Source of the DNA: an uncultured Elusimicrobium sp.
GTDB taxonomy: Bacteria > Elusimicrobiota > Elusimicrobia > Elusimicrobiales > Elusimicrobiaceae
Reading direction: 5' to 3'
NCBI GenBank assembly: GCA_902787065.1
Contig: CADAFA010000001.1
Location: forward strand, 1-58,511
Length of the DNA stretch: 58,511 nt
A program made the position numbers and the translations under genes. The first letter of the stretch is position 1. Each line of letters starts with the position of its first letter. The notes under the pieces were generated by a model, which made no database searches, had not been told where the DNA came from, and saw nothing but the letters and a program-made list of their open reading frames with translations. Positions 15,381 through 57,788 of this stretch are shown here, piece after piece.

Positions 15381-15878
15381 CTAAATTTTTATTATACAAC
15401 CGCTATGATAACCTGTGGGAAAATTATTTTTGATTGTATTATTACATATTTTACGACAAATTTTTTCTTTAATTTCTCTTGATAAAGTACTATTGCCAAA
15501 GGGCCCATTATAGTAATAACAAAAAAATTCACCTAAAAGTATTTGTTCCCATTCCTCATAAGCATAACCTATACGTATATCAGTTTTATTGTTACGAAGA
15601 ATTACGTGGCTATTACTAATATCATAATATGTAATATCTGCCATAATAGGCAAATCTATATCTAATAAATCTATTCTGTCAGCATATTCCCCTTTCACTA
15701 AATAATAACGTTGTTGTGCTTCAGCAATATTTTTAATTATACTCATTTGTGTTTTTGTTTTTACCAAGTTTACTACATAATAATACTGCGGCAGTGCAAT
15801 TGCCGCTAAAATACCGATAATTAAAACTACTACTAATAATTCTAACAATGTAAAACCTTTCTTATTATTTTTTATCAT
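15381..15878 (-). CDS. Prepilin-type N-terminal cleavage/methylation-domain protein (pilin-like paralog)
   Basis: MIKNNKKG/FTLLELLVVVLIIGILAAIALPQY with Gly-1, Phe+1, Glu+5. AGGAG 11 nt upstream of the ATG at 15878. The ORF-track GTG at 15890 abuts the RBS. Confidence 0.8.
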   Translation of the reverse strand: MIKNNKKGFTLLELLVVVLIIGILAAIALPQYYYVVNLVKTKTQMSIIKNIAEAQQRYYLVKGEYADRIDLLDIDLPIMADITYYDISNSHVILRNNKTDIRIGYAYEEWEQILLGEFFCYYYNGPFGNSTLSREIKEKICRKICNNTIKNNFPTGYHSGCIIKI

Positions 15879-15935
15879 ACTTATAAACACTCCTAAATTG
15901 ATTCATACAGCGTTTTTAATTTAACTGTATACTAT

Positions 15936-20389: not shown

Positions 20390-21166
20390 ATGGAATCATT
20401 ATTTGTTTATATTTTAAGTCTAATTTTAGGTGCAATGGTAGGCAGTTTTTTGAATGTCTGTATTTATAGAATACCGGAAAATGTTTCGCTTTGGTGGCCA
20501 CCATCAACTTGCCCGAAGTGCAAAACAAGAATCAAATTCTACGACAATATTCCTGTATTAAGTTATTTAATTTTACGCGGCAAATGCAGGAATTGCAAAG
20601 CAGGAATTTCTGCCCAATATCCGCTTATTGAGGCTACAACATCTCTTTTAACCTTATTTGTAGTTTACAAACTCGGTTTAACTTATTGGACGGCAATTAC
20701 CCTGCTTGTGACTTATTCTTTAATAGTTTTATCTATGATAGATTTCAGACTTTATATTATACCGGATAGGTTTTCAATAGGTTTGACTGTTTTAGGGCTT
20801 GTGGTGTTTTTTATTAACCCTGCCTTCAGCGGAAATCTAACGGCAAAATTTTTACAATGTTTGACCGGCGGTGCTGTGGGATTCTTCGGTCTTTGGGGTA
20901 TGGCAATAATAGGCAGTTTGCTATTCAAAAAAGAAGCCATGGGTGGCGGAGATATTAAATTAATTGCAGCCGTAGGCACTTTAACAGGGGTTAGCGGTGT
21001 TATTTCAACTTTAATTATTGCTTCTTTTCTTGGTTTAGTTTATTATGCTGTTTTGTTTATTTTAAAGAAAAACCCTCAAAACAAAACTATCCCTTTCGGA
21101 CCTTTTATAAGTATAGGGCTTTTTATAAATATATTATTCCCCAATAATTTGCTATTATTATATTAA
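20390..21166 (+). CDS. pilD: Prepilin peptidase (A24 family, PilD/GspO)
   Basis: Zn-finger-like CPKCKTRI...CRNCK, YPLIE, two catalytic Asp regions including GGGDIKL. Polytopic membrane protein. Confidence 0.9.
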   Translation: MESLFVYILSLILGAMVGSFLNVCIYRIPENVSLWWPPSTCPKCKTRIKFYDNIPVLSYLILRGKCRNCKAGISAQYPLIEATTSLLTLFVVYKLGLTYWTAITLLVTYSLIVLSMIDFRLYIIPDRFSIGLTVLGLVVFFINPAFSGNLTAKFLQCLTGGAVGFFGLWGMAIIGSLLFKKEAMGGGDIKLIAAVGTLTGVSGVISTLIIASFLGLVYYAVLFILKKNPQNKTIPFGPFISIGLFINILFPNNLLLLY

Positions 21167-21171
21167 TAGCT

Positions 21172-21969
21172 ATGCGAAAAACATTAATACTGTCTTTAAT
21201 TTTATTTTTAAGTTCCTTCACTTGGGGGCAAAAAGTCCAAGTATTAAGCGGGGTTACACCCCCTAAAAAAAAGGAAATTGCCCTTTATCCGACACCATCA
21301 AAACTTGAAATAGATGATGAAATGTTGCCTACATCAGCTGATTATTACCTCTTTGAAGTTTGTGTTATAGGGCAAGAAGAAATAAAAGTCCCAGTTCAAC
21401 AACAATTGCCTGCACAAAGAAATACAAAAGCAATTCCCCAACAATATAAAATAAAAAATTATAGGCCTATAAGAAGGTGTAAATACTATGAAGGAACAAA
21501 TACCCCTTTAGATAAACGCCGCATGATGACCGCTGCCGCACAAGAAATACATGTACCTAATGGAAGAACCATAGAAATAAATATAAAAGCCTATTTAGGT
21601 AACCCTCATGCTAGTTTTGTCGTTATTGATAAAGCCGCTATGCCTTACACTTTACCTTATGAGGAAATGTCAAAAGGCAGTGTGCTTAAAAAAATTTTAG
21701 CAGGTGAAGATAAAATTGCCAAATTTTACAGTTTTAATTTACCTGCTTCCATATACTTAAATTCTATAGTACAAAAGCGTTTATACAGGAATTTACCAAT
21801 CCGGATAAGTTTTTACGAAGAAACTTTAGGCAACGGGCAAGCCAGAACTTTTATAGTTTTTGTTTTTAATGAAGCTGAAAAATATACTTATAAGCCTGTC
21901 GCAAATGAAATTGTAAGCGACAAAGTTTATGATATCACCCCTGACTTTGCAGTTCAGTATTTAAAATAA
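21172..21969 (+). CDS. Hypothetical secreted protein
   Basis: Signal peptide MRKTLILSLILFLSSFTWGQ. 5-nt gap after pilD. No recognisable motif. Confidence 0.55.
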   Translation: MRKTLILSLILFLSSFTWGQKVQVLSGVTPPKKKEIALYPTPSKLEIDDEMLPTSADYYLFEVCVIGQEEIKVPVQQQLPAQRNTKAIPQQYKIKNYRPIRRCKYYEGTNTPLDKRRMMTAAAQEIHVPNGRTIEINIKAYLGNPHASFVVIDKAAMPYTLPYEEMSKGSVLKKILAGEDKIAKFYSFNLPASIYLNSIVQKRLYRNLPIRISFYEETLGNGQARTFIVFVFNEAEKYTYKPVANEIVSDKVYDITPDFAVQYLK

Positions 21970-22139: not shown

Positions 22140-22815
22140 AAATATCCCCCGGCGAAGCCGGGGGTTTTTCATATGCGGGCATAGCCCTATATTACTAGTC
22201 CTCTGCAAATGCAGCCGCAACCGCTCTATTTCTTGCGTATCTGCTCTAATCCATCGTAAAACGGTAATACGCTTTCTAGCTTATCTGTCTTTAATTGATT
22301 GCTGATGTAATCTGCTATCTTTTGCGTGTTCTTTCCCACCGTATCCACATAGTAACCTCGACACCAAAAATTTTTATTGCCATATTTGAACTTTAAGTTC
22401 CCAAACTTCTCATACATCATCAAGCTACTCTTTCCTTTTAAATACCCCATAAATCCTGCTACACTTATCTTCGGGGGTATCTTTACTAACATGTGTATAT
22501 GATCGGGACAGGTCTCCGCTTCTAGTATTTGCACCTCTTTCCACTCACATAGTTGCCTTAGTATCCTGCCTATTTCTTTTTGCTTGTCTTTATATAGTAT
22601 TTGTCTTCTGTATTTCGGTGCAAATACTATGTGATACTTGCAATTCCATTTCGTATGTGCTAATTTATTTATATCCTTATCCATAGTAAGGACCTCCTTG
22701 TGCTTTAAATTACCTGCTGTCACAGGTAATTTAATTATAGCACAAGGAGTTTTCTTGTGTTAGGCATAGGTGGAACCCTTTTATCGACTCCCCGGCGTAG
22801 CCGGGGGTTTATTTT
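22140..22815 (-). mobile_element. IS200-type insertion sequence (IS200/IS605 family, tnpA only). Boundaries approximate.
   Basis: About 680 bp. Near-identical subterminal hairpins CCCCCGGC-GAA-GCCGGGGG (22146-22164) and TCCCCGGC-GTA-GCCGGGGG (22789-22807). A 23-bp composite stem 22694-22749 buries the tnpA SD (AAGGAGG). Y1 transposase inside. Confidence 0.8.
22226..22684 (-). CDS. tnpA: IS200/IS605-family Y1 (HUH) transposase TnpA
   Basis: KYHIVFAPKYRR, HUH motif DHIHMLV, catalytic Tyr region IADYISNQ. ATG at 22684 with AAGGAGG RBS. The ORF-track start at 22723 lies inside the hairpin. Confidence 0.9.
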   Translation of the reverse strand: MDKDINKLAHTKWNCKYHIVFAPKYRRQILYKDKQKEIGRILRQLCEWKEVQILEAETCPDHIHMLVKIPPKISVAGFMGYLKGKSSLMMYEKFGNLKFKYGNKNFWCRGYYVDTVGKNTQKIADYISNQLKTDKLESVLPFYDGLEQIRKK

Positions 22816-22856
22816 TACAACAAATAAAATCCCCGAGTTTAAAACCCGGGGATTTT
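22815..22856 (-). terminator. Rho-independent terminator of the giant pilin gene
   Basis: 10-bp stem AAAATCCCCG/CGGGGATTTT (22826-35/22847-56), followed on the minus strand by ATTTGTTGT. Confidence 0.55.
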
Positions 22857-22899: not shown

Positions 22900-25761
22900 T
22901 TACCAAGGAACTTCTGTACACCTAAAGGCCAAACTTGAAATATGTGTACAATATTTCTTAGGAATAATACTACCACAAGTGTCCCATTGAGTAGCTGGAG
23001 GAACCGGCGAATTCATGTTCCAATTCCCATTTATAGGAATACCTACTCTAGTTGGATTGGTTGTAGTGCGACAATAGCCGGTAACGGTTTGCTGATTACT
23101 AGGACTATAGTTATTTATTGTTGTAATAGAAGTATCACTACAATAAGAATCGCTACAGTGTGGATTATTGTACCCTTGCCCGCTACTTCCGCAAGTTACA
23201 AGTCTACTAAAAGCACAACCGGTATCCGAAGGTATATATTCAAAATAAGCAGAAAATGTAGTAGTTTGATAACACTTCTTCTTCGCATTGTTATACACTG
23301 TGCCTTGCGGACAGCTGACTAATTGACAGTTCTTACAATTTATGCCATCTGATGTCGGATATTGAGCAAGGGCATTTGAACACTGTGCCCCGGGCCTTAA
23401 AAGAACAACCTGATTATCATATTGCCATGTCCAAGTTCCATCCTGATTTTCCTTGCATTTATGTTCGTACATACTGCAAGAATCCGGCCCTATAACAGAG
23501 AGATTATCCACCCCGCACATAGCATCGGTATAACACTGTGACCAACGGCAGCTTTCGCACCTTTGGAAACCTGTCAATCCATTTAAAGAGCAGGAGTGAG
23601 GTTGTTCAACATTTTCACAATTATTTCCTAAATGCCATTCCGCTATACCATTAGAAGTTGGCGGGTTATACATATCAGAACCCGATAACCATTGTGTATA
23701 TCCTTCTTGGGCCCAACATTCAGATTTATATGTAGCACACCCACTGTCATAATCAGCAGGTTTTGCTGAAGCATCACATAAAGACCACGGCGACCACTTA
23801 CACTCCTGGCAGACCCTATTCAATAAAGGTAGCCATATAGGTGGGGCAGTTGGGTCATTTGAATTTGGAACATAGTTCCAATTAGGGGGGAGAGGGATTT
23901 GTCCGCCACCTCCGCCACCTCCGCCAGCACCACCGCCAGCACCGCCGCCACCGGATTGACCGCCACCCGACTGACAGTACACTATATTAGGGCCGCATAT
24001 ACCGGATAAGCAAGAGTAACATTGATTACCTCTACACACATCCGGCTCATACCCACCTGAGAAAATCCCACAGCCAATACAATCAGCTGCACAAGTACCT
24101 TCTGCGTCTGAGTAAGAACAGCAGTTGTCACCTGAACCCCTGCCCCCTGTATTTTGCGAGGTACCGTCATTACAATCGCCAGAATAGCAATATTCCCTTA
24201 AACCGTTTTGTTCACAATTATACCAAGGGTGTAAAAATTCAATTTCCTCAGTATACTGCCAATGCCAATTGCCATCGCTATCTTTTACACATTCTTGTTT
24301 CTTTTTTTGACAATCGCCAACTTGTGCCGCGGGAAGCATTGTATTAGGGTCGCAATTTTGATTTGGATCAGGGAAACAATCTTTTGACCATTGACAGTCG
24401 TCTTGGCAAATTTTAACGAAACCATTTGTGCATCCTTCTTCTTTAGTTTGGCCGGTAAAGCAAGCACTTCCACTCTTAAGTTTGCAAGCAGTAATTAAAT
24501 CTACACCGGAATAACTATCATTTAACTCGCAGCTGGAAAATACCTTAGAACCGCAAGTATTGCCGGGAGTGGCAATAGAATATAAATCCGTACCGTCACA
24601 ATCTTGTCCTATATCCCCGTTAACCTCTATACATTCATTGTTATTGGCGCAGTACCACTGGCCGGTAGTGCCGTTACATTCAACCGTATTATCTTCTGTA
24701 CTCCTATAACCGCAACATTGCTGGGAAGACGGGGGAGTACTTCCTCTTGTTCCGGAAATATCATTTGAACAAGGATTACATACCTCTATGGGATGTGCAT
24801 TTGCCATACAAATTTCGCTAACACTCGGTTTTGGAAGGCTGCAACTCTTATCACATTCACAAGTTTTTTCATTAAGTTTAGTTCCTGTAGGGCATTCCTT
24901 TGGACGGCACTCAGTTTTGCCTGATAATTGCCAAAAGCCGGAAGTACATATCCTTTCCTGCCACTCTACCCCACATACTAAATTTATAATTGGAAGAAGG
25001 GAACCAGGATCTATACCTCTGCCGCGTTTACCACTGCCTTGTTTACCACAAGCATTATTTGTTTGTATCCACTCTGTTGCACCTTCTACGGAACATGGCT
25101 GATTACCACCTATACATTCACAGTTCTCCTCGTTAAGCATACCACCGCTTGCCTGGCAAGAATTGTACATATCACAAGGACATTTTTTGCATTCACAGGT
25201 AGAACAGAGGAAGCCAAAACCGTTACCAAATTGCTGGGCGCATATATCCTCATTTAATTCGCAGGGCTCTTGGTCGTTGGGACACAATTCAGCCAAATTA
25301 TCTACAGGGGAGACAAAGTCTTTTATCTCCTCGCAAAAGGGGCCGCTGCATTGTACTTTATCATGAGTCTTATAGTTTTTTACCAAAGTATAATCACTAC
25401 CGCTAATATTAGATACTGCTTGTATACAGTGCTGGGTAGGTACTTTCTTATATGTGAAATTGGCAGTTACTAAATTTTCATAAACCACCCCCTCAACGGT
25501 TACTTTTTTCTTTATAGGGGCATTTAAAGCGGCTAAACTTGCTGAATATCTGTTGTGCTGTATAAAATATTTTTCTTGTGCGCCGGCTAACATATCAAGA
25601 ACATGTAACCCATCGGCGACACGGCTTCTCTTTATCACTTTGTTATAGGTTGGCACAGCAATTGCTGCCAATACAACTAAAATAATGAGCACCACCAAAA
25701 CTTCAAAAAGGGTATAACCTTTTTTTCGTTTAAACTTAAATTTGCTAAATAATTTGTTCAT
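22900..25761 (-). CDS. Giant modular type IV pilin-like protein: prepilin N-terminus plus about 900-aa Cys-rich extracellular region with a poly-Gly hinge
   Basis: Leader MNKLFSKFKFKRKKG / YTLFEVLVVLIILVVLAAIAVPTY (Gly-1, Glu+5). About 82 Cys by hand count. Repeated modules (CQKKKQECVKDSDGNWHWQYTEEIEFLHPWYNC vs CSMYEHKCKENQDGTWTWQYDNQVVLLRPGAQC; CQDDCQWSKDC / CQECKWSPWSLC / CESCRWSQC). GGGQSGGGGAGGGAGGGGGGGG tract. Confidence 0.8.
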   Translation of the reverse strand: MNKLFSKFKFKRKKGYTLFEVLVVLIILVVLAAIAVPTYNKVIKRSRVADGLHVLDMLAGAQEKYFIQHNRYSASLAALNAPIKKKVTVEGVVYENLVTANFTYKKVPTQHCIQAVSNISGSDYTLVKNYKTHDKVQCSGPFCEEIKDFVSPVDNLAELCPNDQEPCELNEDICAQQFGNGFGFLCSTCECKKCPCDMYNSCQASGGMLNEENCECIGGNQPCSVEGATEWIQTNNACGKQGSGKRGRGIDPGSLLPIINLVCGVEWQERICTSGFWQLSGKTECRPKECPTGTKLNEKTCECDKSCSLPKPSVSEICMANAHPIEVCNPCSNDISGTRGSTPPSSQQCCGYRSTEDNTVECNGTTGQWYCANNNECIEVNGDIGQDCDGTDLYSIATPGNTCGSKVFSSCELNDSYSGVDLITACKLKSGSACFTGQTKEEGCTNGFVKICQDDCQWSKDCFPDPNQNCDPNTMLPAAQVGDCQKKKQECVKDSDGNWHWQYTEEIEFLHPWYNCEQNGLREYCYSGDCNDGTSQNTGGRGSGDNCCSYSDAEGTCAADCIGCGIFSGGYEPDVCRGNQCYSCLSGICGPNIVYCQSGGGQSGGGGAGGGAGGGGGGGGQIPLPPNWNYVPNSNDPTAPPIWLPLLNRVCQECKWSPWSLCDASAKPADYDSGCATYKSECWAQEGYTQWLSGSDMYNPPTSNGIAEWHLGNNCENVEQPHSCSLNGLTGFQRCESCRWSQCYTDAMCGVDNLSVIGPDSCSMYEHKCKENQDGTWTWQYDNQVVLLRPGAQCSNALAQYPTSDGINCKNCQLVSCPQGTVYNNAKKKCYQTTTFSAYFEYIPSDTGCAFSRLVTCGSSGQGYNNPHCSDSYCSDTSITTINNYSPSNQQTVTGYCRTTTNPTRVGIPINGNWNMNSPVPPATQWDTCGSIIPKKYCTHISSLAFRCTEVPW
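23902..23967 (-). repeat. In-frame GGN low-complexity tract with 9-nt and 12-nt tandem duplications (encodes the poly-Gly hinge)
   Basis: Plus strand TCCGCCACC TCCGCCACC TCCGCCAGCACC ACCGCCAGCACC GCCGCCACC. Confidence 0.8.
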
Positions 25762-25795
25762 ATCTTCTCCGGTAATTATATGGGCCTACTTTATT

Positions 25796-25824
25796 ATTAT
25801 AACTAGTTTTTACCTAGTTTGCAA
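25796..25824 (-). promoter_or_regulatory. Near-consensus sigma70 promoter of the giant pilin gene
   Basis: Minus strand TTGCAA (25824-25819), 17-nt spacer ACTAGGTAAAAACTAGT (itself an inverted repeat), TATAAT (25801-25796). GGAGAAG RBS before the ATG at 25761. Confidence 0.6.
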
Positions 25825-26076: not shown

Positions 26077-26613
26077 ATGGTAAATCAAAATTACACAAGA
26101 AGCAGTAAAGATCTTTTAAGAAAGAATGAACAAATTCGCGCGCCGCAGGTACGTTTGATAGGATCTGACGGCACAATGCTTGGGATAATGAGTTCCTCAG
26201 AAGCCCTGTATAAAGCGAAACAAGAAGCGCTTGACTTGGTGGAAATTTCACCAAATGCTCAGCCGCCTGTTTGTAAGATACTTAACTACTCCAAGTATCT
26301 ATATGAACTAGGCAAAAAGAGTAAAGACGCGAAAAAGAAACAAAAGGCAGTATCTCTTAAAGAAATTCGCCTGAAATCCAGAATCGCGCCACACGACTTA
26401 GAAGTCAAAGTTAAGCAAATTGAAGGATTTCTTAAAAAGAAAGACATGGTCCGCGTGTCCGTTGTGTTCTACGGGCGTGAGAACCAGCACAAAGACATTG
26501 GTACGACAATGCTTGAAGATATGAAAAATAAATTAGCGGAAATCGCCAATGTTGAAGGCAATATGCAAGCACAAGGGAACAGAATATCAGTAACTTTCGT
26601 CCCTAAAAATTAA
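26077..26613 (+). CDS. infC: Translation initiation factor IF-3
   Basis: NEQIRAPQVRLIGSDGTMLGIMSSSEALYKAKQEALDLVEISPNAQPPVCKILNYSKY. Followed by rpmI and rplT. Confidence 0.9.
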   Translation: MVNQNYTRSSKDLLRKNEQIRAPQVRLIGSDGTMLGIMSSSEALYKAKQEALDLVEISPNAQPPVCKILNYSKYLYELGKKSKDAKKKQKAVSLKEIRLKSRIAPHDLEVKVKQIEGFLKKKDMVRVSVVFYGRENQHKDIGTTMLEDMKNKLAEIANVEGNMQAQGNRISVTFVPKN

Positions 26614-29414: not shown

Positions 29415-29473
29415 GTAAAAATATAATATCTTAACTATGCTATAAGTATAATACTAAATAAGTGAGGATATTT

Positions 29474-30970
29474 ATGATAAAAAAATTAATATGTTTATGC
29501 CTTACCCTTACATTGATGTTAGGAAACAGCTTCGCACAAGTTTTTAATAATGGTGCAAATGCTTGGAATATGTCAGAAATTTTAGAAACAAAAGGATATA
29601 TTCCAAGTGAAGGTTTTCATTATTATATGCCAAAAAAACGAATATTTAACCCTTGGAAAATGCATATATATGCAGATAACCTTAATGATTTAAGAAACAT
29701 ATCAAACAAAATTTTACCTTACTTACAATATCTGGATGTAGAACATAAAATATCACTAAATGCCGCTACTGCCACAAATGATATACAGGCAAATAAAGCA
29801 ATAACAATATACCCCAAAAATGAAGAAGAATTTAGAAAAATAGCAGTAGATTTGGAACGCATTATTTATGACAACAATTTACAAAAACCAAGAACAAGCA
29901 TTTACGGAGATGAAGCTTTAGGTAAAACCGGCCGTATTTTTTATAGATATGATGCAGGTTCCAAATATTACTTAGGTAAAGATATTTACAGAGTTAATGA
30001 CGGGCATTATTTAGCGGAAGGTATGACCGTTTATGATGACCCTTTCCACTATATGAATAATATGAGAACCTTATTGGACGATGCCCAAAGAATAGAAATT
30101 ACTACATTAGATGAATTAAAACATTTAAATAACATAACACAAGGAAATAAAATAATACTCGGCCGTAATTTTGAAGGGGTTAATAAAGATGCTAATTTGG
30201 TAAGCAGAGAACAATTATTGTTCACAAGAGAAAGAGCAGATATTATTAGTGTAAAAAATATAGGTAGGAACCCTGTCCAAGTAAACGGGCATATATTAAA
30301 TAATGGCGATGTTTGGTATTTAACTGCTCAAGATAAAAATCTTAGAATATTTCTTCCTTCACAAGCCAATGGTAATTTGGCCGGTTTTAATAATGTAGTA
30401 ACAGTAAATTTAGAACCATACCAATTAAAAAATATGCGCCCTAATAGACCTACAGCAATCAGAACAAACGGACAATTAGTAAAAAACTTTTTTAAACGCA
30501 TACAAGCCAGATTCCCAAAAATTACTCTTAGACAAGGCGTAAAACATAACTTTATACATGAAATTCCAAAAGAAGTCAGACGCGGTGCAAAAGTTTTTAC
30601 ATACTTAGGCCCTATAGTTGCTGTAGCAGTATTACTCTATACAAATAGAGATAAGACCAACATACAAAGCATTTCATTTCAGGATATAAAAAAGAATATT
30701 GAAGAAATGAAACAAACCGATGTAGAATTAAACCCTTCCGACATAGATGATGTGGCAAGAATTTTAGCTTTTTCCGATCCGGATTATGAAATGCTTATAA
30801 ACAAAAGCCCCTCATTATTAAGCAAGCAAATGGCAATAGTAGAGGGTTTAAATAGAGAATTAGAAGACAATATTGTTGAGGCCATAACAAATGTAACAAA
30901 TAAACAAGCTTATTTAGATATAGAAGATAAAGTTATTAAAAAAATTAATGAATATGAAAATGAAGCATAA
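29474..30970 (+). CDS. Hypothetical signal-peptide protein with an FHA-like segment and a C-proximal TM helix
   Basis: MIKKLICLCLTLTLMLGNSFAQ signal. FHA-like pattern ILGRNFEG..LVSREQLLF...VKNIGRNPVQVNGHIL.NGDVWYL. TM VFTYLGPIVAVAVLLYT. Acidic coiled C-terminus. Confidence 0.55.
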   Translation: MIKKLICLCLTLTLMLGNSFAQVFNNGANAWNMSEILETKGYIPSEGFHYYMPKKRIFNPWKMHIYADNLNDLRNISNKILPYLQYLDVEHKISLNAATATNDIQANKAITIYPKNEEEFRKIAVDLERIIYDNNLQKPRTSIYGDEALGKTGRIFYRYDAGSKYYLGKDIYRVNDGHYLAEGMTVYDDPFHYMNNMRTLLDDAQRIEITTLDELKHLNNITQGNKIILGRNFEGVNKDANLVSREQLLFTRERADIISVKNIGRNPVQVNGHILNNGDVWYLTAQDKNLRIFLPSQANGNLAGFNNVVTVNLEPYQLKNMRPNRPTAIRTNGQLVKNFFKRIQARFPKITLRQGVKHNFIHEIPKEVRRGAKVFTYLGPIVAVAVLLYTNRDKTNIQSISFQDIKKNIEEMKQTDVELNPSDIDDVARILAFSDPDYEMLINKSPSLLSKQMAIVEGLNRELEDNIVEAITNVTNKQAYLDIEDKVIKKINEYENEA

Positions 30971-42403: not shown

Positions 42404-42426
42404 TACCTAGAATTATCCTCTTCAAT

Positions 42427-43903: not shown

Positions 43904-45130
43904 TTAACCTCCGATTTGGGACATTTTAAATATCGGCAAGAAAATAGACAAAACTATAACAGCTATTATAGAACCTATACCTACAATTAAAATCGGGTCA
44001 ATCATAGCAGAAAAACGGGCTAGGAATTGATTAACTTGTTCTTGATAGAATACAGCAAGGGTTTCCATAATACTAGGTAAACGCCCAGATTCTTCACCCA
44101 TAAGCATCATTTCAGTCATCAAACCAGGGAAAACTTTAGTTTTTCTAAAAGATTCTGATAAACTCTTACCTGAAGCAACTTCATTTTTAGTATAGGTTAT
44201 AGCTTCCTTTATAATAACATTACCGGCAAAAGATTCTTCCATAACAGTTAAAACGTTAATAATGCTTACACCGCTGTTTAACAAAGTAGCCATGTTATTA
44301 AGTAATTTTTCATAGTAAATATTAGAAACAAATTTGCCGAATATAGGCATGGTTAAATGAAATTTATGCCAAACTTTTTTACCTGACGGAGTAGATATAA
44401 TCATATAAAATATAGACACAATAGCAACTATAATTGTAAATATTAAAAGCCAATGATCTGCTATAGCATGTGAAACATTCAATACGATTTTCGTTATTGT
44501 AGGCAATTCCATGTCAAAGTCTCTAAATATATCAGCAAATGTCGGGACTATCCCTACCACGAAATACACTAAAACACCCATGGCCATAATAAACAATACT
44601 GCCGGGTAAGAAACTGCGGTAATAATTTTGCTTTTCAAAGCTTCTTTAGATTTGACGTATTTAGCAACCTGCATCAAAGCATCAGCTAAATGGCCGCCAA
44701 CCTCACCTGCTTCAATCATGGAAATCCAAGTATGGTCAAATACTCTAGGGAATTTATCAAGAGCTTCATGCATAGAATTACCACTCGCAATATCGCGGGC
44801 TACTGCTACTAAAACAGGCCCAAAATTTTTATCTGTAGAGTATTCTCCAAGCAAAGATATAGCCCTGATTAAAGGAACACCACCGCTTAGCAAAGTTGAA
44901 AGCTGTTCAGCAAAAAAGGCTAAAACATGCCCTTTTATTTTTTTAGAACCGATACGCGCAGAGCTAAATAAAGAAGCAAAAGAAGTTTTTGCCTTTTCCG
45001 GTTTTATTTCTAATACAATAAAACCCTTAACCTGTAAAGCATAAATAGCCTTTTCTATAGTATCAGCTGTTATTGAACTTCTTATATACTTTCCATTAGT
45101 ATCTTGAACTGTACAATTAAACCTAGGCAT
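43904..45130 (-). CDS. pilC: Type IV filament platform protein (PilC/GspF family)
   Basis: 408 aa. Duplicated GspF-type domain (FFAEQLSTLLSGGVPLIRAI.. and YEKLLNNMATLLNSGVSIINVL..). Three TM segments. Confidence 0.85.
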   Translation of the reverse strand: MPRFNCTVQDTNGKYIRSSITADTIEKAIYALQVKGFIVLEIKPEKAKTSFASLFSSARIGSKKIKGHVLAFFAEQLSTLLSGGVPLIRAISLLGEYSTDKNFGPVLVAVARDIASGNSMHEALDKFPRVFDHTWISMIEAGEVGGHLADALMQVAKYVKSKEALKSKIITAVSYPAVLFIMAMGVLVYFVVGIVPTFADIFRDFDMELPTITKIVLNVSHAIADHWLLIFTIIVAIVSIFYMIISTPSGKKVWHKFHLTMPIFGKFVSNIYYEKLLNNMATLLNSGVSIINVLTVMEESFAGNVIIKEAITYTKNEVASGKSLSESFRKTKVFPGLMTEMMLMGEESGRLPSIMETLAVFYQEQVNQFLARFSAMIDPILIVGIGSIIAVIVLSIFLPIFKMSQIGG

Positions 45131-45157
45131 ATTATCTCCTTTTATTCATTTGCTAAA

Positions 45158-46897
45158 TTATTCATTTGCTAAAGTGACAGCAAGAACTTCTTCAACAGTA
45201 GTAATACCGGTTACAGCTTTCCTCCAACCGCTGGCACGTAAATTCCAAGCACCTGTACTTTGGGAAGCTTTTTTAAGCTCAATCAAATCTTTAGTTTGAT
45301 AGATTGTATTGCGCATACTTTCGTTTACTTTAAATACTTCGTAAATTGCTTTTCTGCCCATATAACCGGTACCGGAACACTTAGGACAACCTTGGGCTTT
45401 AAAGAAAGTCCATGTTGCTTTATCTTTAGAAGGTAACATTGATTCCCTTATAACCTGATCAATAACACTCGGCCCCGGAACATAAGGCACTTTACAATAA
45501 GGGCAAAGTACCCTAACCAGACGCTGGGCAGCCACCAAAGCCAAAGAGCTTGCCAGCAAGAAAGGTTCTATACCCATATCAATCAAACGGGGAACAGCAC
45601 CGATAGCTTCATTTGTATGCAAAGTAGAAAATACCAAGTGACCTGTCAATGCAGCTTTTAAGCAAGCTTCTGCAGTTTCAGAGTCCCTGACTTCACCGAC
45701 TAGTATTACATCAGGGTCCTGACGTAAGAAAGAACGCAGGCCCGCCGCAAAAGTTAAACCTATTTGCGGTTTTACCTGTACTTGGCTGATACCGGATAAT
45801 TTGTATTCTACCGGGTCCTCCAAAGTCATAAAATTGTATTCGGAACTTTTTATTGATGTTAAAACAGCATTTAAAGTTGTAGTTTTACCTGAACCTGTGG
45901 GACCGGTCAAAAAAATCAAACCATGGGGTAAAGCTGCTGCTTCCAAGAAATCTTTTTTTTGTTTAGGTTCGAAACCCAATTTGTCAAGATTCAATTCGTT
46001 GCTACCCTTATCCAAAATACGGATAACCAACTTTTCGCCGAAAACGGTAGGACATACTGACACACGGAATTCTACCGTCCTGTTTTGGAATTTTACTGCG
46101 AAACTTCCATCTTGTGGTAAACGTTTTTCAGCGATATCAAGTTTTGATAAAATTTTTATACGGGAAATAATAGCCCCAACGTCTTCCTTGGCCGGTGAGG
46201 TTCTTTCATACAAAGAACCGTCAATCCTAAAACGCAAACTTACTCTTTCATCAAATAATTCTAAGTGGATATCAGACACCCTTTCTGTTAAAGCTTGACG
46301 CAAAATAGCGTTAACCATTTTAACATAATGAGCACCTGCACCGGAAAATTCTTTATCTAAGTCAATTTTAGCATCGGGGTTAGAAAGTTCTTCTAAACTT
46401 TGCCCTTCCCCTGCTTCTGCTTCTTCTTTCTCTTCTGAAATTACTTCTGCAAGCAAGTCTTTCTTAGAATAAAACGCATCCAAAGCTTGAAACAACTGTG
46501 ATTTGCTGGCGATAAAGGGCTGTATCTCAAGCCCGCTCATCATGCGCAAATTATCCAACAGAAAAACGTTGGAAGGATCGTTTAAAGCAACTGCTAAGGT
46601 GTTATCTTCTATAAATAGAGGTAAAATAACATTTTCACGGGCATATTTTTCCGGAATATACTTAGCAAGATTTTGATCTTTTTCAGGTATCAAAATGCCA
46701 TTTTGCCTACTGGCATAAGGTACTGAAAGTTGTTTAGACATTGCTTGTGTAAGTTCTTCTTCTTTAACAATATCCAAGGATACCAAAGCTTCGTTTAAAG
46801 AGACCTCATTTTGCTTTGCATGTAATTCTGCTTTCTTTAAACCTTCTTTGGTTAACTTACCACTTTCTATTAAAATATCTACCAACTGTTTTGCCAT
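45158..46897 (-). CDS. pilB: Type IV filament assembly ATPase (PilB/GspE family) with N-terminal MshEN/GspE_N-like domain
   Basis: Walker A GPTGSGKTTT, Asp box, Walker B DPDVILVGEVRD, His box GHLVFSTLHTN, tetracysteine CPYC...CPKC. Confidence 0.9.
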   Translation of the reverse strand: MAKQLVDILIESGKLTKEGLKKAELHAKQNEVSLNEALVSLDIVKEEELTQAMSKQLSVPYASRQNGILIPEKDQNLAKYIPEKYARENVILPLFIEDNTLAVALNDPSNVFLLDNLRMMSGLEIQPFIASKSQLFQALDAFYSKKDLLAEVISEEKEEAEAGEGQSLEELSNPDAKIDLDKEFSGAGAHYVKMVNAILRQALTERVSDIHLELFDERVSLRFRIDGSLYERTSPAKEDVGAIISRIKILSKLDIAEKRLPQDGSFAVKFQNRTVEFRVSVCPTVFGEKLVIRILDKGSNELNLDKLGFEPKQKKDFLEAAALPHGLIFLTGPTGSGKTTTLNAVLTSIKSSEYNFMTLEDPVEYKLSGISQVQVKPQIGLTFAAGLRSFLRQDPDVILVGEVRDSETAEACLKAALTGHLVFSTLHTNEAIGAVPRLIDMGIEPFLLASSLALVAAQRLVRVLCPYCKVPYVPGPSVIDQVIRESMLPSKDKATWTFFKAQGCPKCSGTGYMGRKAIYEVFKVNESMRNTIYQTKDLIELKKASQSTGAWNLRASGWRKAVTGITTVEEVLAVTLANE

Positions 46898-46925
46898 ACT
46901 AACGATCCTTCCAATTCAAAACTAC

Positions 46926-48494
46926 TTATTCAGACAACACCGTAGGTGTTATGAAAATGACTAAGTCTGTAGTGCTTTTACTTTTCTGCTTAGAAGTAAA
47001 TAACCAACCAATTATTGGTATTTGACCAAGTAAAGGAACCCTATAAGTCATTTCTTTATCCGAAGATTGTAAAAGGCCGCCTAACACAACTGTTTGGCCG
47101 CTTTTTACGCGAACTTGTGTTGTAACAGCACGGGTGACTGTATCATAAGTATCGCCCATTTCTGATGCAACAAGATCTGAATAAGAAGGTAAAACTGTTA
47201 AAGTAACATAACCTTCTTTATTAACTTGAGGTGTTACGGTTAAGGTTAATCCAATTCTCTTTCTTTCAGAACCGCTTGTTGTGGTTGTACCGCTTGAACC
47301 ACTTCCTGTATCTCTAGTTATTGTACCTATGGAGGCATCTCTTGAAGAAGTTACCATAGCTTGATTATTATTCATGGTAATAACTTTAGGTTTACCTAAT
47401 GAGCGGGCCTCTTGGTTTTGCATTAAAGCTTTAAATACAACTGTAAAATTTTCCCAACTCAATTTAGGAGATACCGTGCTAGGGCTGTCATTAGAAGTTG
47501 TACCGAGATATCTTAACAACTTATTACCTTCTCTGGCACCGAAATAATTCCAAGGCATTTCTGTCGCGCCGCCGGTAAATGTGCCTTGAACATTCCAGTT
47601 AAAACCGACATCATAACCACTACCTTTTGATACTTCAATTACTTGAGCTTCAATTAAAACTTGAGGAGCTTTAATATCGAGCTCATCTAAGATGCTTTCT
47701 ATTTGCGGGAAAACTTCCGGAACATCAGTAATAATTAATTTATTTGTTCTGGAGTCAATAGCAATTTTCCCTTGTTTTGTAAGAACACTTTGAATAACGC
47801 CTAAAATTGCGCTGCTTCCGTTGCCGGCGATGGTTTGTGTCGGAGAATTATTTAAAGAAAAGCCAGGACCGCCTGGGCCACCGCTGGAAGAACTGTCAAA
47901 AACGTTAAAAGAAGTTCCGCTTCCGCCGCTAAAACTGCTGCTGGTGACATCTGCAGGCATAACAGAACTTAAATCACTGGCAAGAGATGTGTTAGGTTGC
48001 AAAGATACATAATTTAAAGTATAAACTTTAGTTATTGTATTAGGAGCTTCCTCAGAGCGGTTTGTAATAACATAAGAATCACTTTTACCGACTCTTTGAT
48101 AAGTCAAACCTTGTACCCTTAACAGAGTATCCAAAGCTTCCCGAACAGTTACATTTGTTAAGGAAGCAGAAATTTTCTTACCGGAAAACTCCTCTCCCAT
48201 AATAAAGTTAATTTTTGATTGTGCGGAAATACTGTTTAAGAAAGTACCTATTGGTACATTATTAACCCTGATAGTTACTTTCCTATCTAACGGAGAAACA
48301 ACTTCCCGTTTGTATAATGAAGATTCCGCCTTTTGCCCAGCATTATTATTGGCTTTCGGGGTTTCCCCATAATTATCTACTACTTCAACCTTCGGCCCTG
48401 TTGAATTTTTCGTTCCTTGTGCCAAAGCTATTTGGCTACACAATTGAAACGAAGCAAACACCAGTACCAAAGTGAGTGCTATTTTCTTTTTCAT
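46926..48494 (-). CDS. pilQ: Secretin (PilQ/GspD family)
   Basis: Signal peptide. N-domain repeat, Ser/Gly-rich linker. C-terminal secretin core ending VPLLGQIPIIGWLFTSK....DLVIFITP. Confidence 0.85.
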   Translation of the reverse strand: MKKKIALTLVLVFASFQLCSQIALAQGTKNSTGPKVEVVDNYGETPKANNNAGQKAESSLYKREVVSPLDRKVTIRVNNVPIGTFLNSISAQSKINFIMGEEFSGKKISASLTNVTVREALDTLLRVQGLTYQRVGKSDSYVITNRSEEAPNTITKVYTLNYVSLQPNTSLASDLSSVMPADVTSSSFSGGSGTSFNVFDSSSSGGPGGPGFSLNNSPTQTIAGNGSSAILGVIQSVLTKQGKIAIDSRTNKLIITDVPEVFPQIESILDELDIKAPQVLIEAQVIEVSKGSGYDVGFNWNVQGTFTGGATEMPWNYFGAREGNKLLRYLGTTSNDSPSTVSPKLSWENFTVVFKALMQNQEARSLGKPKVITMNNNQAMVTSSRDASIGTITRDTGSGSSGTTTTSGSERKRIGLTLTVTPQVNKEGYVTLTVLPSYSDLVASEMGDTYDTVTRAVTTQVRVKSGQTVVLGGLLQSSDKEMTYRVPLLGQIPIIGWLFTSKQKSKSTTDLVIFITPTVLSE

Positions 48495-48527
48495 TACTTC
48501 CTCCTAATTTTTTTTATCTACAAAACT

Positions 48528-49025
48528 TTATAACAAAGGTAATTTGCGCTGAAACCTTTGCCCTTTATAAGTAAACCAAACAGAATCATCTGTTATTGAC
48601 ACTACTTTAGCTCCTAAAACTTTGGAGCCTATACCAACAACTTCTCCGTTAACTATGGCCTCTTTTCCTAAGATACCGTCTACACGTATTTTATACATGA
48701 TAGCTCTGGCAGGATAACGTCTTATTTCATCTTCAAGAATTTTTTGTTTCAAGATGCGTTCCCTTTCCGCTTTAGCCTGACGTTCTCTCTCTGCTTCTTC
48801 TTCAACTAAACGGCGCTGCTCTGCCTTCCTCATTTGGTCTATTTTTATAACTTCTTCTTTAGATAAAAAGGGATTTCTTCTGCCCGGGTTAAAAGAAACT
48901 TTTTTTACTCCCACGGCCTTTGTATTTACAGCAGCCTTATTATTTTGCACCTTTTGTGCATTAACTGTCACAATTAAAAAGCAAAAACACAGAGCTAGAC
49001 AAATATATAAAAATTTATTTTTCAT
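48528..49025 (-). CDS. PilP/GspC-like periplasmic protein
   Basis: Signal/anchor, charged coiled region. C-terminal beta domain YKIRVDGILGKEAIVNGEVVGIGSKVLGAKVVSITDDSVWFTYKG, typical of PilP/GspC HR domains. Position next to the secretin. Confidence 0.45.
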   Translation of the reverse strand: MKNKFLYICLALCFCFLIVTVNAQKVQNNKAAVNTKAVGVKKVSFNPGRRNPFLSKEEVIKIDQMRKAEQRRLVEEEAERERQAKAERERILKQKILEDEIRRYPARAIMYKIRVDGILGKEAIVNGEVVGIGSKVLGAKVVSITDDSVWFTYKGQRFQRKLPLL

Positions 49026-49623
49026 TCTTTCCCCCTACCAAAGTTGGAAAATCTTTATCCTGAACAAAAACAGTATTGGTATTAAAAGTAACACTTAATT
49101 TTTCTAATTCCCCTTGTTTACGGCTGATTTTTAAATCTGATACACGCATAAAACTAGGATTATTCTCTATCGCTTCAATAACACGCCCTATTTGTTCAAA
49201 GGTGAGCTCCCCTTTAATCGGAATAGTAGAAATGGTAAAAACCCCTTCTGTCTTCTGCGCCTCATTACCATTAGATAAAGCGGCTTCTGTTAAACCGACT
49301 TGTTCTCTTATTGAAATAATTTGTGACGGATGCCAAAAGGCTTTTTGAGTATTTGGGGGTAATTCCTCAGCCAATTTCATATACTTAGCCTTATTTTTTA
49401 AATACTCTTCCCTGTTTTCAATTTCTGCTGCTTGGGCTTCCGCCTTCCTTCTCATATCACTTATTTGAGAAGATGTTCCTTGATGTAAAAACCAGGCAAT
49501 TACGACAACTATTATTAACATTGACAAAGGCCTAAAAAAAGGCTTAAAATTTCTGTCTTTAATCATCGAAATGGCATCTGTCATGCCAGCTTTTAAATTA
49601 CTTATTTTCATTTTTATTCCCAC
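49015..49623 (-). CDS. PilO/GspM-like bitopic inner-membrane protein
   Basis: Single TM (LSMLIIVVVIAWFL), coiled coil, C-terminal alpha/beta domain. Position between the PilMN-like and PilP-like genes. Confidence 0.45.
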   Translation of the reverse strand: MGIKMKISNLKAGMTDAISMIKDRNFKPFFRPLSMLIIVVVIAWFLHQGTSSQISDMRRKAEAQAAEIENREEYLKNKAKYMKLAEELPPNTQKAFWHPSQIISIREQVGLTEAALSNGNEAQKTEGVFTISTIPIKGELTFEQIGRVIEAIENNPSFMRVSDLKISRKQGELEKLSVTFNTNTVFVQDKDFPTLVGGKNEK

Positions 49624-51190
49624 ATTTTACTACAAATTTAGTACCTAAAACAAAGATACTACCTTGATTTTTCAAAGAATTATCAATATTGTAGCTTATA
49701 TTAGCTGAATTTTTACATAAATCAGCAAAATCTAAATCAGCAGATATATCTGACTTAAATTTATTACCTAAAGCCAATTCCTCTTTATTACCAGCTAAGG
49801 TACTGGCTATCCCTTCAATAGCCATAGTAGCATTTCCTTTTTTTATATCAAAATTATAAGGATAATCTATTGATAAGGAGGATAACCAAATATCTTCCGG
49901 TAAAGTTCTGGGTAAAGCAGAAAGTTTTTTAGTAAAATACGGCTCTACAAGTAAACCGTCTAATTTTTTAGAATTGCTCTTTAAATTTGAGACTTTCGTC
50001 TTAATCTGGTCAGCATACAAGCCCTGAAAGTCTGTTACTTCCTTTTGATCTTTTTTGCTGGCTTTAAGCTGTACGGCAGTAACAACTGAAGTCACCTGCA
50101 TAAATAAAGCATAAAGTATTACAAGGCCTGCAACAGCTGCCGTTACCAACCAGGCAAAGGTTGTAGCCCTAATTTCTTCATCTGAAGAACGATTACCTTT
50201 ATAGAAATCTATATCTGGTACTTTTTTGTTAACAAATTTGAGGCAAGCCCCTAAAACAGACATTTCGGAGAATCCGTCCACCCTAAAGCCGAAAACCTCA
50301 CTTATTTTGCTTATCCTAACATGTTGTTTAACTTCTCCCTCTACTATATAAACCCAAAAATCCCCGTCGTCAGAAACTACCGCTACATCTTCAAAAGGAT
50401 TCTTTTCAAGTTGTTTAGAAATAAAATCCATACAATTCGTTATTTCTAAACGGTTTCTTGCACCCAGAGCCTTCTGAACTTCCACCTCCCTAAACATCAG
50501 TGGTAATTCATTTAAGGCAAACAGGAATTGCCCATGGGTAGAAGTGAAGTTTGCATATATGATACCTTTTTGTTCGGAATTATCTTTATCTACTTGTGTT
50601 AAAAGGCGATAAGCAGATATTGCAGAACATTCCACTGAAACTAAATTAAGCCCTATTTTTTTCATCCCGGCTTCTAAAGCAGAAATGATTTTAGCAGAAG
50701 TCATACAAAATACAACACCAAGCTTCTGGGTTTTACTTAAAGGAGCATTAAAAGGGTATACATAGAAATCATAAACACCCTTTTCAAAAGGATAATGAAT
50801 ATATTTTCTAGCCTGAAGGGGTATAGTTTGTTTCCAATAAACACGGGCTATATTCTGAATTACAAAATGCCTGTAAATACAAAATGCCGGATCAAGAGAG
50901 ATAACAACATTTTTAGTGTTAAAATCTCTACTTTCTATGATTTTCTGTATGGGATCAAGCCAATGTTTAGTTGTTAAAAAGAATCCTTCATTTAATTCTG
51001 CAGGTTTTAAGTTATCTTGAGGAACATCACTTATAGGTAATTTTATAAGTGAATTTACTTCCATCCCGCCTGCAACAGTTGTAACCTGTGCGACATAAAC
51101 ATCCGTCAAGGAAATATGTATACCTATACATTCCACATAATCTGAACGTTTAATGCCTGAGAATTTGTCAAAAATACTAGTTATATCCAT
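49598..51190 (-). CDS. PilM-PilN fusion (GspL-like architecture): cytoplasmic actin-like domain, TM helix, periplasmic domain
   Basis: N-terminal VECIGIHISLTDVYVAQV (PilM-type start), about 340 aa cytoplasmic, TM WLVTAAVAGLVILYALFMQV, about 160 aa periplasmic. Confidence 0.55.
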   Translation of the reverse strand: MDITSIFDKFSGIKRSDYVECIGIHISLTDVYVAQVTTVAGGMEVNSLIKLPISDVPQDNLKPAELNEGFFLTTKHWLDPIQKIIESRDFNTKNVVISLDPAFCIYRHFVIQNIARVYWKQTIPLQARKYIHYPFEKGVYDFYVYPFNAPLSKTQKLGVVFCMTSAKIISALEAGMKKIGLNLVSVECSAISAYRLLTQVDKDNSEQKGIIYANFTSTHGQFLFALNELPLMFREVEVQKALGARNRLEITNCMDFISKQLEKNPFEDVAVVSDDGDFWVYIVEGEVKQHVRISKISEVFGFRVDGFSEMSVLGACLKFVNKKVPDIDFYKGNRSSDEEIRATTFAWLVTAAVAGLVILYALFMQVTSVVTAVQLKASKKDQKEVTDFQGLYADQIKTKVSNLKSNSKKLDGLLVEPYFTKKLSALPRTLPEDIWLSSLSIDYPYNFDIKKGNATMAIEGIASTLAGNKEELALGNKFKSDISADLDFADLCKNSANISYNIDNSLKNQGSIFVLGTKFVVKCGNKNENK

Positions 51191-57769: not shown

Positions 57770-57788
57770 TTCCCCTCCAAAAGACACA

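Follow-up and report, generated by a model that had tools for sequence, protein, structure and literature searches.

What is a pilin of 953 residues and 82 cysteines doing beside the prepilin peptidase gene of an uncultured Elusimicrobium sp.? The gene lies at 22900..25761 on the minus strand of a 58,511-nucleotide contig (CADAFA010000001.1), the whole of which was analysed and is referred to here as the window. An initial annotation, made from the letters alone, had described its product as a modular type IV pilin, in which a standard prepilin N-terminus is fused to a large disulfide-rich extension with all of its cysteines paired. Our analysis, in which the protein was compared with sequence and structure databases, modelled and set beside its relatives, supports this core claim, which survived every refutation test that was run. 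We propose that the product, hereafter the giant pilin, is probably a modular minor pilin that would display, on type IV filaments, a variable domain that resists proteases and serves in binding or as an antigen.

Translation of the gene gave an intact open reading frame (ORF) of 953 amino acids, and the cysteines, put at about 82 in the earlier hand count, number exactly 82 (8.6%), together with 21 tryptophans. Cysteine makes up on average 1.18% of the residues in the window's 56 other ORFs, which places the giant pilin 7.3-fold above this background; the other pilins of the window are 118-236 amino acids long, as had been reported. The cysteine strings, the Gly/Ala run and the Pro-rich stretch picked out in the initial annotation are all present in the translation (CSTCECKKCPC at residues 186-196 and CECDKSC at residues 301-307; the two linkers are given in Table 1). 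Its motif descriptions held in part. Two copies of DG-x-W-x-WQY are real (residues 491-516 and 769-794), but no single strict pattern covers both (C-x-K-x2-DG versus C-K-x3-DG), and of the three claimed copies of C-x2-C-x-WS-x-C only the one at residue 735 is exact, the other two being the variants CQDDCQWSKDC at 452 and CQECKWSPWSLC at 651. The protein ends in FRCTEVPW, and no hydrophobic segment is found at this C-terminus.

A chimeric assembly had been named as one way in which the ORF could mislead. In an independent metagenome assembly of the same species (L017, ERZ1029115) we found an ORF of identical length, 953 amino acids, with 99.8% DNA identity, and relatives elsewhere have the same architecture. 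The two conspecific genes differ at 5 of 2,862 nt, and four of these differences are synonymous and one is non-synonymous (V98I), which argues for constraint on the gene. Given the matching ORF in L017, the giant pilin gene is no assembly artefact.

The N-terminus bears the class III signal of type IV pilins. The leader MNKLFSKFKFKRKKG is followed by YTLFEV, with glutamate at mature position 5 (Glu5), the predicted mature protein starts with YTLFEVLVV, and the junction of leader and mature N-terminus reads KRKKG followed by YTLFEVLVVLIILVVLAAIAV. The signal was recognised by Pfam N_methyl (26.6 bits, cut-off 21.2) and by TIGR02532 (24 bits, cut-off 16.3). G15, T17, L18 and E20 (Glu5) are invariant in the family of relatives described below, and Cys 112, 138, 143 and 160 are invariant in an alignment of 25 family sequences. 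This alignment was used to build an AlphaFold2 model of the full protein, in which residues ~20-160 had a predicted local distance difference test score (pLDDT) of 80-94 and formed an extended alpha-1 helix (residues 18-69) followed by a beta-sheet (strands at residues 102-139), in keeping with the pilin fold, in which such a helix packs on an antiparallel sheet and a disulfide lies near the C-terminus. Foldseek matched this head to gonococcal pilin 1ay2 (PilE) with a probability of 1.00 and to 5vxx with a probability of 0.98, and phmmer and profile searches of the Protein Data Bank (PDB) retrieved PilE, PilA and geopilin chains through the N-terminal region alone. As modelled, the head is type IVa (T4a)-like.

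Two more specific identities were considered for the head and rejected. As a type II pseudopilin, the protein reached only 30.4 bits with GspG against a cut-off of 88.85, through the N-terminal helix alone, and could not be placed among GspG-K. As the DNA-uptake pilin ComP, it reached 26.8 bits against 27.3 with ComP_DUS, over positions 1-48 of the 87-position profile (residues 37-82, alpha-1C). The leader is 15 residues long, as compared to 4-13 residues in the other pilins of the window. In five relatives, whose leaders contain one or five cysteines, an odd total cysteine count becomes even after removal of the leader, which supports the predicted cleavage site. The predicted first mature residue (codon 16, 25714-25716) is Tyr in the giant pilin and in P0029, and Phe in 33 of 34 complete relatives.

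Residues 161-953, which join after the conserved LCP at 159-161, constitute an added module outside the pilin fold. Within this extension, a Cys-rich core (residues 161-510) is common to 21-35 of 39 relatives and a distal half (residues 511-953) to 0-8 of 39. Conservation within the family is highest in the pilin head (16-160), and pairwise identity drops from the N- to the C-terminus in every pair compared. The core had a pLDDT of ~70-89 in two models, the full one and a separate model of residues 161-515 (overall pLDDT 73.5, predicted template modelling score (pTM) 0.42), and the distal half had a pLDDT <50. The predicted secondary structure of the extension is mainly short beta-hairpins. 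With fair local confidence and a low pTM, the model is consistent with small modules strung in a chain, which would have no fixed mutual orientation.

Part of the extension is internally duplicated: residues ~371-581 match residues ~675-874 (blastp E = 1e-10), and both DG-x-W-x-WQY copies fall within the duplication. We defined a Cys/Trp module of ~80 (up to ~90) residues with the consensus C-x2,3-C-x-W-x1-3-C ... C ... C-x4-8-G-x-W-x-W ... C and the invariant positions C15, C19, W21, C25, C47, C54, W62 and W64. It was found in 31 instances across the family, with 0-3 per protein and two in the giant pilin of the window, and 24 of the 31 make up the module alignment (A4). The module is newly defined and matches no database family. 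The DNA that encodes the Gly hinge consists of imperfect GGY-type repeats with periods of 9, 12 and 21 nt (Tandem Repeats Finder), and because the hinge is repeat-encoded, an in-frame change of its length is plausible; comparable Gly runs are present in P0028, P0030 and P0031.

Searches for relatives of the extension were made by sequence, profile and fold. Pfam, applied to residues 161-953 as three segments and as a whole at E <= 10, returned no family and no extra-module signature, and NCBIfam likewise held no family for this region; a CBM64 match on the DGTWTWQY motif (E = 0.15) was insignificant. In 40 family members and 24 module instances, Pfam recognised the pilin families alone, apart from sporadic chance matches, and CXXCXC and Cyclotide, which appeared in single members at 2-4e-4, were treated as chance. 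Searches of PDB sequences by phmmer, family profile and module profile gave the pilin helix alone, or nothing in the case of the module. Foldseek found no credible match past the pilin head for the full model in PDB and BFVD, and none for the 161-515 model in PDB. Its top additional hits were factor H strings of complement control protein (CCP) domains and PAPP-A (probability 0.13, template modelling score ~0.1), and the modelled likeness to CCP strings extends at most to the architecture.

When residues 161-953 were searched exhaustively with HMMER against 1.84 billion representative proteins, no relative from outside the family appeared; the 25 matches were the query, 23 giant pilins of the family (some of them fragments) and one low-complexity false positive. 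The module profile gave nothing above threshold in a 5.8-billion-protein index, from which the family members themselves were also not recovered. Neither epidermal growth factor (EGF)-like domains, nor knottins, nor any other described Cys-rich domain gave a family hidden Markov model (HMM) or solved-fold match, and the EGF-like or knottin-like label that the cysteine spacings had first received is left without such backing. The view that the extension lies outside the described adhesin families stands, as HMM, profile and fold searches of residues 161-953 assign it to none.

Are the cysteines of the extension paired? A bias toward even cysteine counts is an accepted sign of disulfide formation in exported proteins (PMC2823432). 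Cysteines were counted in 35 complete family members from which the leader had been removed between Gly and Phe or Tyr, and 33 of the 35 mature proteins had an even number (binomial p = 1.8e-8, a value that overstates independence, as the members are related). The earlier remark that an even count is consistent with pairing thus extends to the family. The counts range from 32 to 90, and this span implies many separate gains and losses that would have preserved parity. Within the core, cysteine is conserved at 88%, as compared to 56% for tryptophan, 55% for glycine and 11-35% for other residues. From these sequence statistics we infer that the mature protein contains about 41 disulfides, two in the pilin head and ~39 in the extension.

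When one genome of each GTDB species was scanned for the pattern, relatives turned up only in metagenome-assembled genomes with the label Elusimicrobiaceae or uncultured Elusimicrobia, of which several derive from the rumen. Three further matches (Steroidobacteraceae, Gammaproteobacteria and an unclassified bacterium) concern the N-terminal pilin helix alone. The complete relatives returned by the HMMER search are all giant pilins, with 551-1042 amino acids and 32-90 cysteines, and literature searches found no description of giant Cys-rich pilins. These proteins form a small, previously undescribed family of giant pilins of gut and rumen Elusimicrobiaceae, and every copy with a taxonomic placement comes from Elusimicrobiaceae or Elusimicrobia genomes.

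The giant pilin gene occupies a slot between pilD-orf265 and infC-rpmI-rplT that is the same in nine distinct related genomes (L001-L003, L006-L010), and the prepilin peptidase gene, 1.7 kb from the giant pilin gene, is syntenic in these nine loci. The pilin diverges far faster than the neighbouring genes. Protein identity to the window is 98-100% for AsnRS, 98-99% for L20, 95-98% for IF3 (100% in the closest relative, L012), 89-94% for NIF3 and 76-89% for PilD, with most neighbours at 75-100% across species; for the giant pilin it is 34-42%, over part of the length only. At the DNA level the flanks are 81-95% identical, and similarity ends at ~21977 and ~26016 of the window. Inside this island, alignment with the syntenic loci is possible only for the promoter and the 5'-most ~200-290 nt of the gene, and the distal half has no DNA similarity to them.

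The slot holds one to three copies: three in L006 (4488-11900), two in L003 (3544 and 10435) and two in L010 (704 and 4722). In L003 the two copies agree at 98% over their first 50 residues, after which they diverge. Domains are mosaic among relatives: P0004 and P0032 have identities of 64% (head), 36% (core) and 66% (distal part), and P0030 and P0039 have identities of 86% (head) and 37% (core), with distal parts that cannot be aligned. Between the L003 paralogues the windowed ratio of non-synonymous to synonymous divergence (dN/dS) is 0.04-0.46, and dS is 0.16 at the 5' end versus 1.15 in the middle of the gene, pointing to gene conversion at the 5' end. These comparisons show purifying selection on the cysteine scaffold, together with recombination and module turnover. 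The infC gene (26256-26584) differs between the window and L017 by 18 substitutions, 12 of which are clustered at 26488-26584, as compared to five in the 2.9-kb pilin gene; this contrast suggests that either infC contains a local tract of recombination or the pilin allele was shared recently. Additional, smaller family members lie outside the slot (L011, 8001-9700; L013, 8001-8783; for example P0026, with 560 amino acids and 32 cysteines), and the DNA upstream of these L011 and L013 members cannot be aligned with the slot promoter.

The initial annotation rated this promoter above all others in the window. On score, it belongs to a set of 37 sites in this AT-rich sequence that match at least 10 of 12 consensus positions, four of which score higher (4 sites at 11/12 and 33 at 10/12, the giant pilin's among the latter), and 13 promoter-like sites were observed in the region versus 13.2 expected by chance. 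The promoter is better supported by its conservation across copies than by its score. All 13 slot-associated copies, the window's included, share it together with the Shine-Dalgarno GGAG: the -35 element is TTGCAA, TTGAAA or TTGTAA, the 17-nt spacer contains TAAAA, and TATAAT is invariant. Both elements are retained even where the DNA further upstream differs. The gene was also credited with a terminator of its own, and a 14-bp hairpin is indeed found beyond its stop codon (Table 1).

Table 1. Positions of the features of the giant pilin gene and of the type IV filament genes and insertion element in the window
Feature	Position	Strand	Residues	Basis or remarks
Sigma-70-type promoter, TTGCAA-N17-TATAAT	25796..25824	-		Consensus scan and sequence reading
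Shine-Dalgarno GGAG, 6 nt before ATG at 25761	25767..25770	-		Sequence reading; kept in related copies
Basic leader MNKLFSKFKFKRKKG, 15 residues, predicted cleavage after Gly15	25717..25761	-	1-15	N_methyl, TIGR02532
Pilin module	25282..25716	-	16-160	Alpha-1 helix with Glu5, beta-sheet head, Cys 112/138/143/160
Cys-rich core ("stalk")	24232..25281	-	161-510	44 Cys, short beta-hairpins
Distal half	22903..24231	-	511-953	34 Cys, weakly conserved
Cys/Trp module, copy 1	24172..24450	-	~438-530	C-x3-C-x-W-S-x2-C ... C ... C-x5-G-x-W-x-W ... C
Gly/Ala hinge SGGGQSGGGGAGGGAGGGGGGGG	23902..23970	-	598-620	Translation
Pro-rich linker PLPPNWNYVPNSNDPTAPPIWLP	23827..23895	-	623-645	Translation
Cys/Trp module, copy 2	23326..23601	-	~721-812	Contains CESCRWSQC and DGTWTWQY
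Intrinsic-terminator-like hairpin	22826..22856	-		14-bp stem and T-rich tail, 44 nt past stop
IS200/IS605-family element	22150..22809	-		Transposase CDS 22226-22723; Y1_Tnp E = 7e-39, NF033573
Prepilin peptidase, PilD-like, peptidase A24 (predicted processing enzyme)	20390..21166	+		A24_N_bact E = 5e-36; Peptidase_A24 E = 1.5e-17
Six short pilin genes	40894-43902			
Type IV filament machinery	43904..51190	-		NCBIfam and Pfam matches
PilC/GspF	43904-45130	-		
PilB/GspE ATPase	45158-46897	-		
Secretin	46926-48494	-		
GspC/M-like and PilM-like proteins	48528-51190	-		

The window thus encodes both a prepilin peptidase and a complete assembly machinery, and by this gene content the organism is a diderm with a secretin-dependent type IV filament system. 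There are at least nine ordinary pilin genes (118-236 amino acids) and, with the giant pilin, at least ten prepilin genes in 58 kb. Besides the cluster of six, short pilin genes are scattered at 15381-15890(-), 37649-38128(+) and 57956-58486(-), with a pilin-like stretch at ~2615-2830(+), and the scattered pilins have similar N-termini, two of which start identically (MNKKAFTLLELLVVVLIIGILAAIALPQY). Among the genes of the window, none for a PilT-type retraction ATPase was seen. The PilB/GspE ATPase has an N-terminal MshE-like motif for binding of cyclic di-GMP (NF053729, residues 7-56), and filament assembly may be under cyclic di-GMP control. Two O-antigen-ligase-like Wzy_C proteins with C-terminal tetratricopeptide repeats (53077-55605 and 55595-57787, minus strand) lie between the filament machinery and the 176-amino-acid pilin gene (57956-58486). 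They are candidate PilO/PglL-type pilin O-oligosaccharyltransferases, and pilin glycosylation may occur.

A 265-amino-acid secreted protein (21172-21969, plus strand), which has a signal peptide and no Pfam match, follows pilD directly at the edge of the variable island; it is 48-78% identical between genomes, as compared to 75-100% for most neighbours. The insertion sequence (IS) element of the IS200/IS605 family is bounded by GC-rich hairpins at 22146-22164 and 22789-22807 and lies 90 nt beyond the pilin stop, past the terminator. It is missing from L017, in which ~22810 of the window is joined to ~22149, and because a conspecific strain lacks it, the insertion is judged recent; the element is no part of the pilin system. 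A 502-amino-acid protein with weak RamC_N and FHA_2 matches is encoded at 29462-30970 (+) beside asnS; it, too, is more variable than the genes around it, with an identity of 60% to L001 versus 95% to L012.

We propose the following sequence of events for the giant pilin as a modular minor pilin. PilD would cleave the 15-residue leader after Gly15, and the pilin head would enter a type IV filament via its alpha-1 helix. The extension would fold in the periplasm as a chain of small beta-hairpin modules, with ~41 disulfides including the two of the head. The core may then serve as a stalk that resists proteases, and beyond the Gly and Pro linkers the distal modules may show a species-specific ligand-binding or antigenic surface to the gut or rumen. 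The protein would most likely be a scarce subunit near the tip, and not the major pilin, because a secretin would not be expected to admit a filament whose every subunit carries an 85-kDa appendage: with ~85 kDa extra per ~1 nm of rise, we estimate a fibre ~13 nm wide, and secretin channels measure ~6-8 nm. The diversity of the family could arise in the slot by pilD from relaxed constraint on residues other than cysteine, tandem duplication, module gain and loss, and recombination. An adhesin role is what we infer from this arrangement, and the tip adhesin put forward in the initial annotation is plausible.

Several observations weigh against this reading. The extension has no recognisable ligand-binding domain, and the distal half, which would present the variable surface, has a model of low confidence. 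Between the L003 paralogues dN/dS is above 1 in no window, and positive selection is not demonstrated; the conspecific strains (the window and L017) are one residue apart, which means that the variation lies between lineages and not within this one. No Dsb- or VKOR-type oxidase was found among the ORFs scanned, a search that covered the window only. The fit to the secretin is a geometric estimate only. With its strong promoter, its monocistronic layout and its place next to pilD, the locus looks like that of a major pilin, and Glu5 is invariant. Glu5 is dispensable for the very first subunit of the tip, as in GspK, and its invariance here therefore does not imply a strict tip position. Taken together, the invariant Glu5 and the major-pilin-like locus would weigh on the minor-subunit stoichiometry.

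Of the alternatives, the one that survives best is that the giant pilin serves as a variable surface coat or decoy, displayed, lineage-specific and protease-resistant, by which recognition by host antibodies, phage or protists would be blunted. We consider it unlikely, although much of the locus suits it: the pilin is strongly divergent within conserved flanks, the slot holds one to three paralogues with mosaic domains and signs of 5' gene conversion (dS of 0.16 versus 1.15), and cysteines are kept while almost all else varies. A precedent exists in the Cys-rich variant antigens of Giardia, another anaerobic gut dweller (PMC2188815). However, no silent pilin cassettes of the Neisseria pilS type and no pilin-gene fragments were found elsewhere in the window, where only the N-terminal helix is shared with other pilins, and the near-identity of the conspecific strains gives no sign of rapid switching. 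The dN/dS values of the L003 paralogues, none of them above 1, also speak against a coat, as does the lack of a Pfam match to Giardia variant-specific surface proteins (VSPs). A binding function would be compatible with the coat reading.

It is less likely again that the giant pilin is the major subunit of a thick bottle-brush filament, as this lineage's equivalent of pilA. The estimated ~13-nm width of such a fibre exceeds the ~6-8 nm channel of a secretin, which is encoded in the window, and at least nine ordinary-sized pilin genes are available to supply a major subunit. The 15-residue leader, too, is unlike the 4-13-residue leaders of the other window pilins. What argues for a major subunit is the conserved, consensus-like promoter, with the monocistronic layout and the place beside pilD, the high conservation of Glu5 and the alpha-1 helix, and the resemblance of the head to major T4a pilins such as PilE.

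A shade lower in probability stands the idea that the protein is not on an external pilus at all, its N-terminus acting as an inner-membrane anchor or pseudopilin-like handle and its Cys-rich part being periplasmic or released. The machinery scores about equally as that of a type IV pilus and of a type II secretion system (PilB 582 versus GspE 554 bits; GspD 218 versus PilQ 213), the window shows no retraction ATPase, and cultured Elusimicrobium minutum is said to have shown no appendages. Yet the pilin itself reaches only 30 bits with GspG against the cut-off of 88.85, its head fold matches fibre-forming pilins, and a lineage-variable, disulfide-stapled domain of ~800 residues better suits an exposed surface than the periplasm.

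We regard it as quite improbable that the cysteines serve metal binding or redox chemistry (metallothionein-like, Zn-ribbon-like or oxygen-scavenging) instead of forming structural disulfides. The giant pilin does contain eight CxxC and four CxC motifs, the host lineage is reported to be obligately anaerobic, a setting in which oxidative folding is less expected, and no Dsb gene was found in the window. An all-Cys4 metal arrangement is excluded because 82 is not a multiple of 4, no CXXCH motifs are present in the giant pilin, and the predicted domains, beta-hairpins with much Trp and Gly, do not resemble metallothioneins. Even counts, found in 33 of 35 family members, are also the rule in most other pilins of the window. 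Finally, an assembly chimera or decaying pseudogene, which the IS200 element 90 nt past the stop codon and the near-absence of homologues of the distal half might have suggested, is effectively refuted by the intact ORF in the independent, IS-free assembly L017, the four synonymous versus one non-synonymous differences, the ~35 full-length relatives of the same architecture and the even cysteine parity that runs through the distal half.

The modular minor pilin remains our preferred reading, and a bolder form of it can be put forward tentatively. In this form, which is possible but for which we would not claim the same likelihood, the lineage-restricted family consists of recombining, species-specific surface antigens that bind host, fibre or microbes, built of Cys/Trp modules with new folds and bearing 16-45 disulfides per protein, as a pilus-mounted counterpart of the Giardia VSPs. 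If it were true, these giant pilins would be among the most disulfide-dense bacterial proteins, and an efficient oxidative-folding pathway would have to operate in these anaerobes. In either form, the giant pilins take the modular-pilin design, a recognised route by which type IV filaments acquire functions, to an extreme, with as many as 1,042 residues and 45 predicted disulfides and with modules that databases do not recognise. They are a candidate for how the little-studied Elusimicrobiaceae of gut and rumen contact their surroundings, and they raise the question of which oxidant pairs ~41 pairs of cysteines in the periplasm of an anaerobe. The locus, with its variable insert between conserved flanks, can readily serve as a marker to type Elusimicrobiaceae in metagenomes, and a cysteine scaffold with freely varying loops may serve protein engineers as a stable display framework.

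How does the giant pilin compare with known systems? Closest by lineage, E. minutum reportedly carries '60 pilE-like genes' of unassigned function and of ordinary size; they pose, in the same family, the same many-pilin puzzle as the window. In Pseudomonas aeruginosa, pilA, which occurs in several allele groups, lies by pilBCD in a divergent island and encodes major pilins of ~150 amino acids with a single disulfide loop. The giant pilin locus is like this island in that a pilin beside the peptidase diverges within conserved flanks, with a conserved N-terminus and a variable C-terminus. The giant pilin is 6-7 times larger than P. aeruginosa PilA and is probably not a major subunit.

The VSPs of Giardia, to which protease resistance is ascribed, offer an analogy only. 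They are Cys-rich, CxxC-containing and extensively variable surface proteins (PMC2188815), and the giant pilin resembles them in its cysteines, its CxxC motifs, its variability and its setting in an anaerobic gut organism. It has neither a Pfam VSP match nor the C-terminal transmembrane segment and CRGKA tail of VSPs; it is anchored by an N-terminal pilin helix and encoded at a locus of one to three genes, as opposed to a repertoire of ~200, and no switching mechanism is evident there, unlike in Giardia. With the PilY1/PilC tip adhesins the likeness is one of logic only, namely a large variable effector at the pilus tip on a conserved carrier. PilY1 is a non-pilin that docks via a beta-propeller onto minor pilins, and the giant pilin has no PilY1-like domain.

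Nearer in construction are two large, tip-located minor pilins of type IVb pili, CofB of enterotoxigenic Escherichia coli and TcpB of Vibrio, in which, as in the giant pilin, a pilin module and a flexible linker are followed by additional beta-rich domains without a database match. CofB carries an unrecognised module and has been proposed to be a tip-sited adaptor (discussed in PMC8179133). No sequence or fold similarity to CofB or TcpB was found, and unlike them the giant pilin has a T4a-like head, is far larger and is Cys-rich. The best described modular type IV pilins are PilB, with a von Willebrand factor A module, and PilC, with a lectin module, of Streptococcus sanguinis (Raynaud et al. 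2021, PMC8179133), and a survey that shows the design to be widespread listed more than 1,200 modular pilins in 264 architectures, with an extreme of 860 residues (PMC8179133). The giant pilin shares with PilB and PilC the plan of a class III pilin module followed by a bulky grafted module for display on the filament. Unlike theirs, its graft is unrecognised and multi-modular and would hold ~39 of the ~41 predicted disulfides, and its host is a diderm with a secretin. With its extension it goes beyond the surveyed 860-residue extreme and is hypervariable between related species. Thus, what is new with respect to the known modular pilins is the type of module, the disulfide content, the size and the hypervariability between species.

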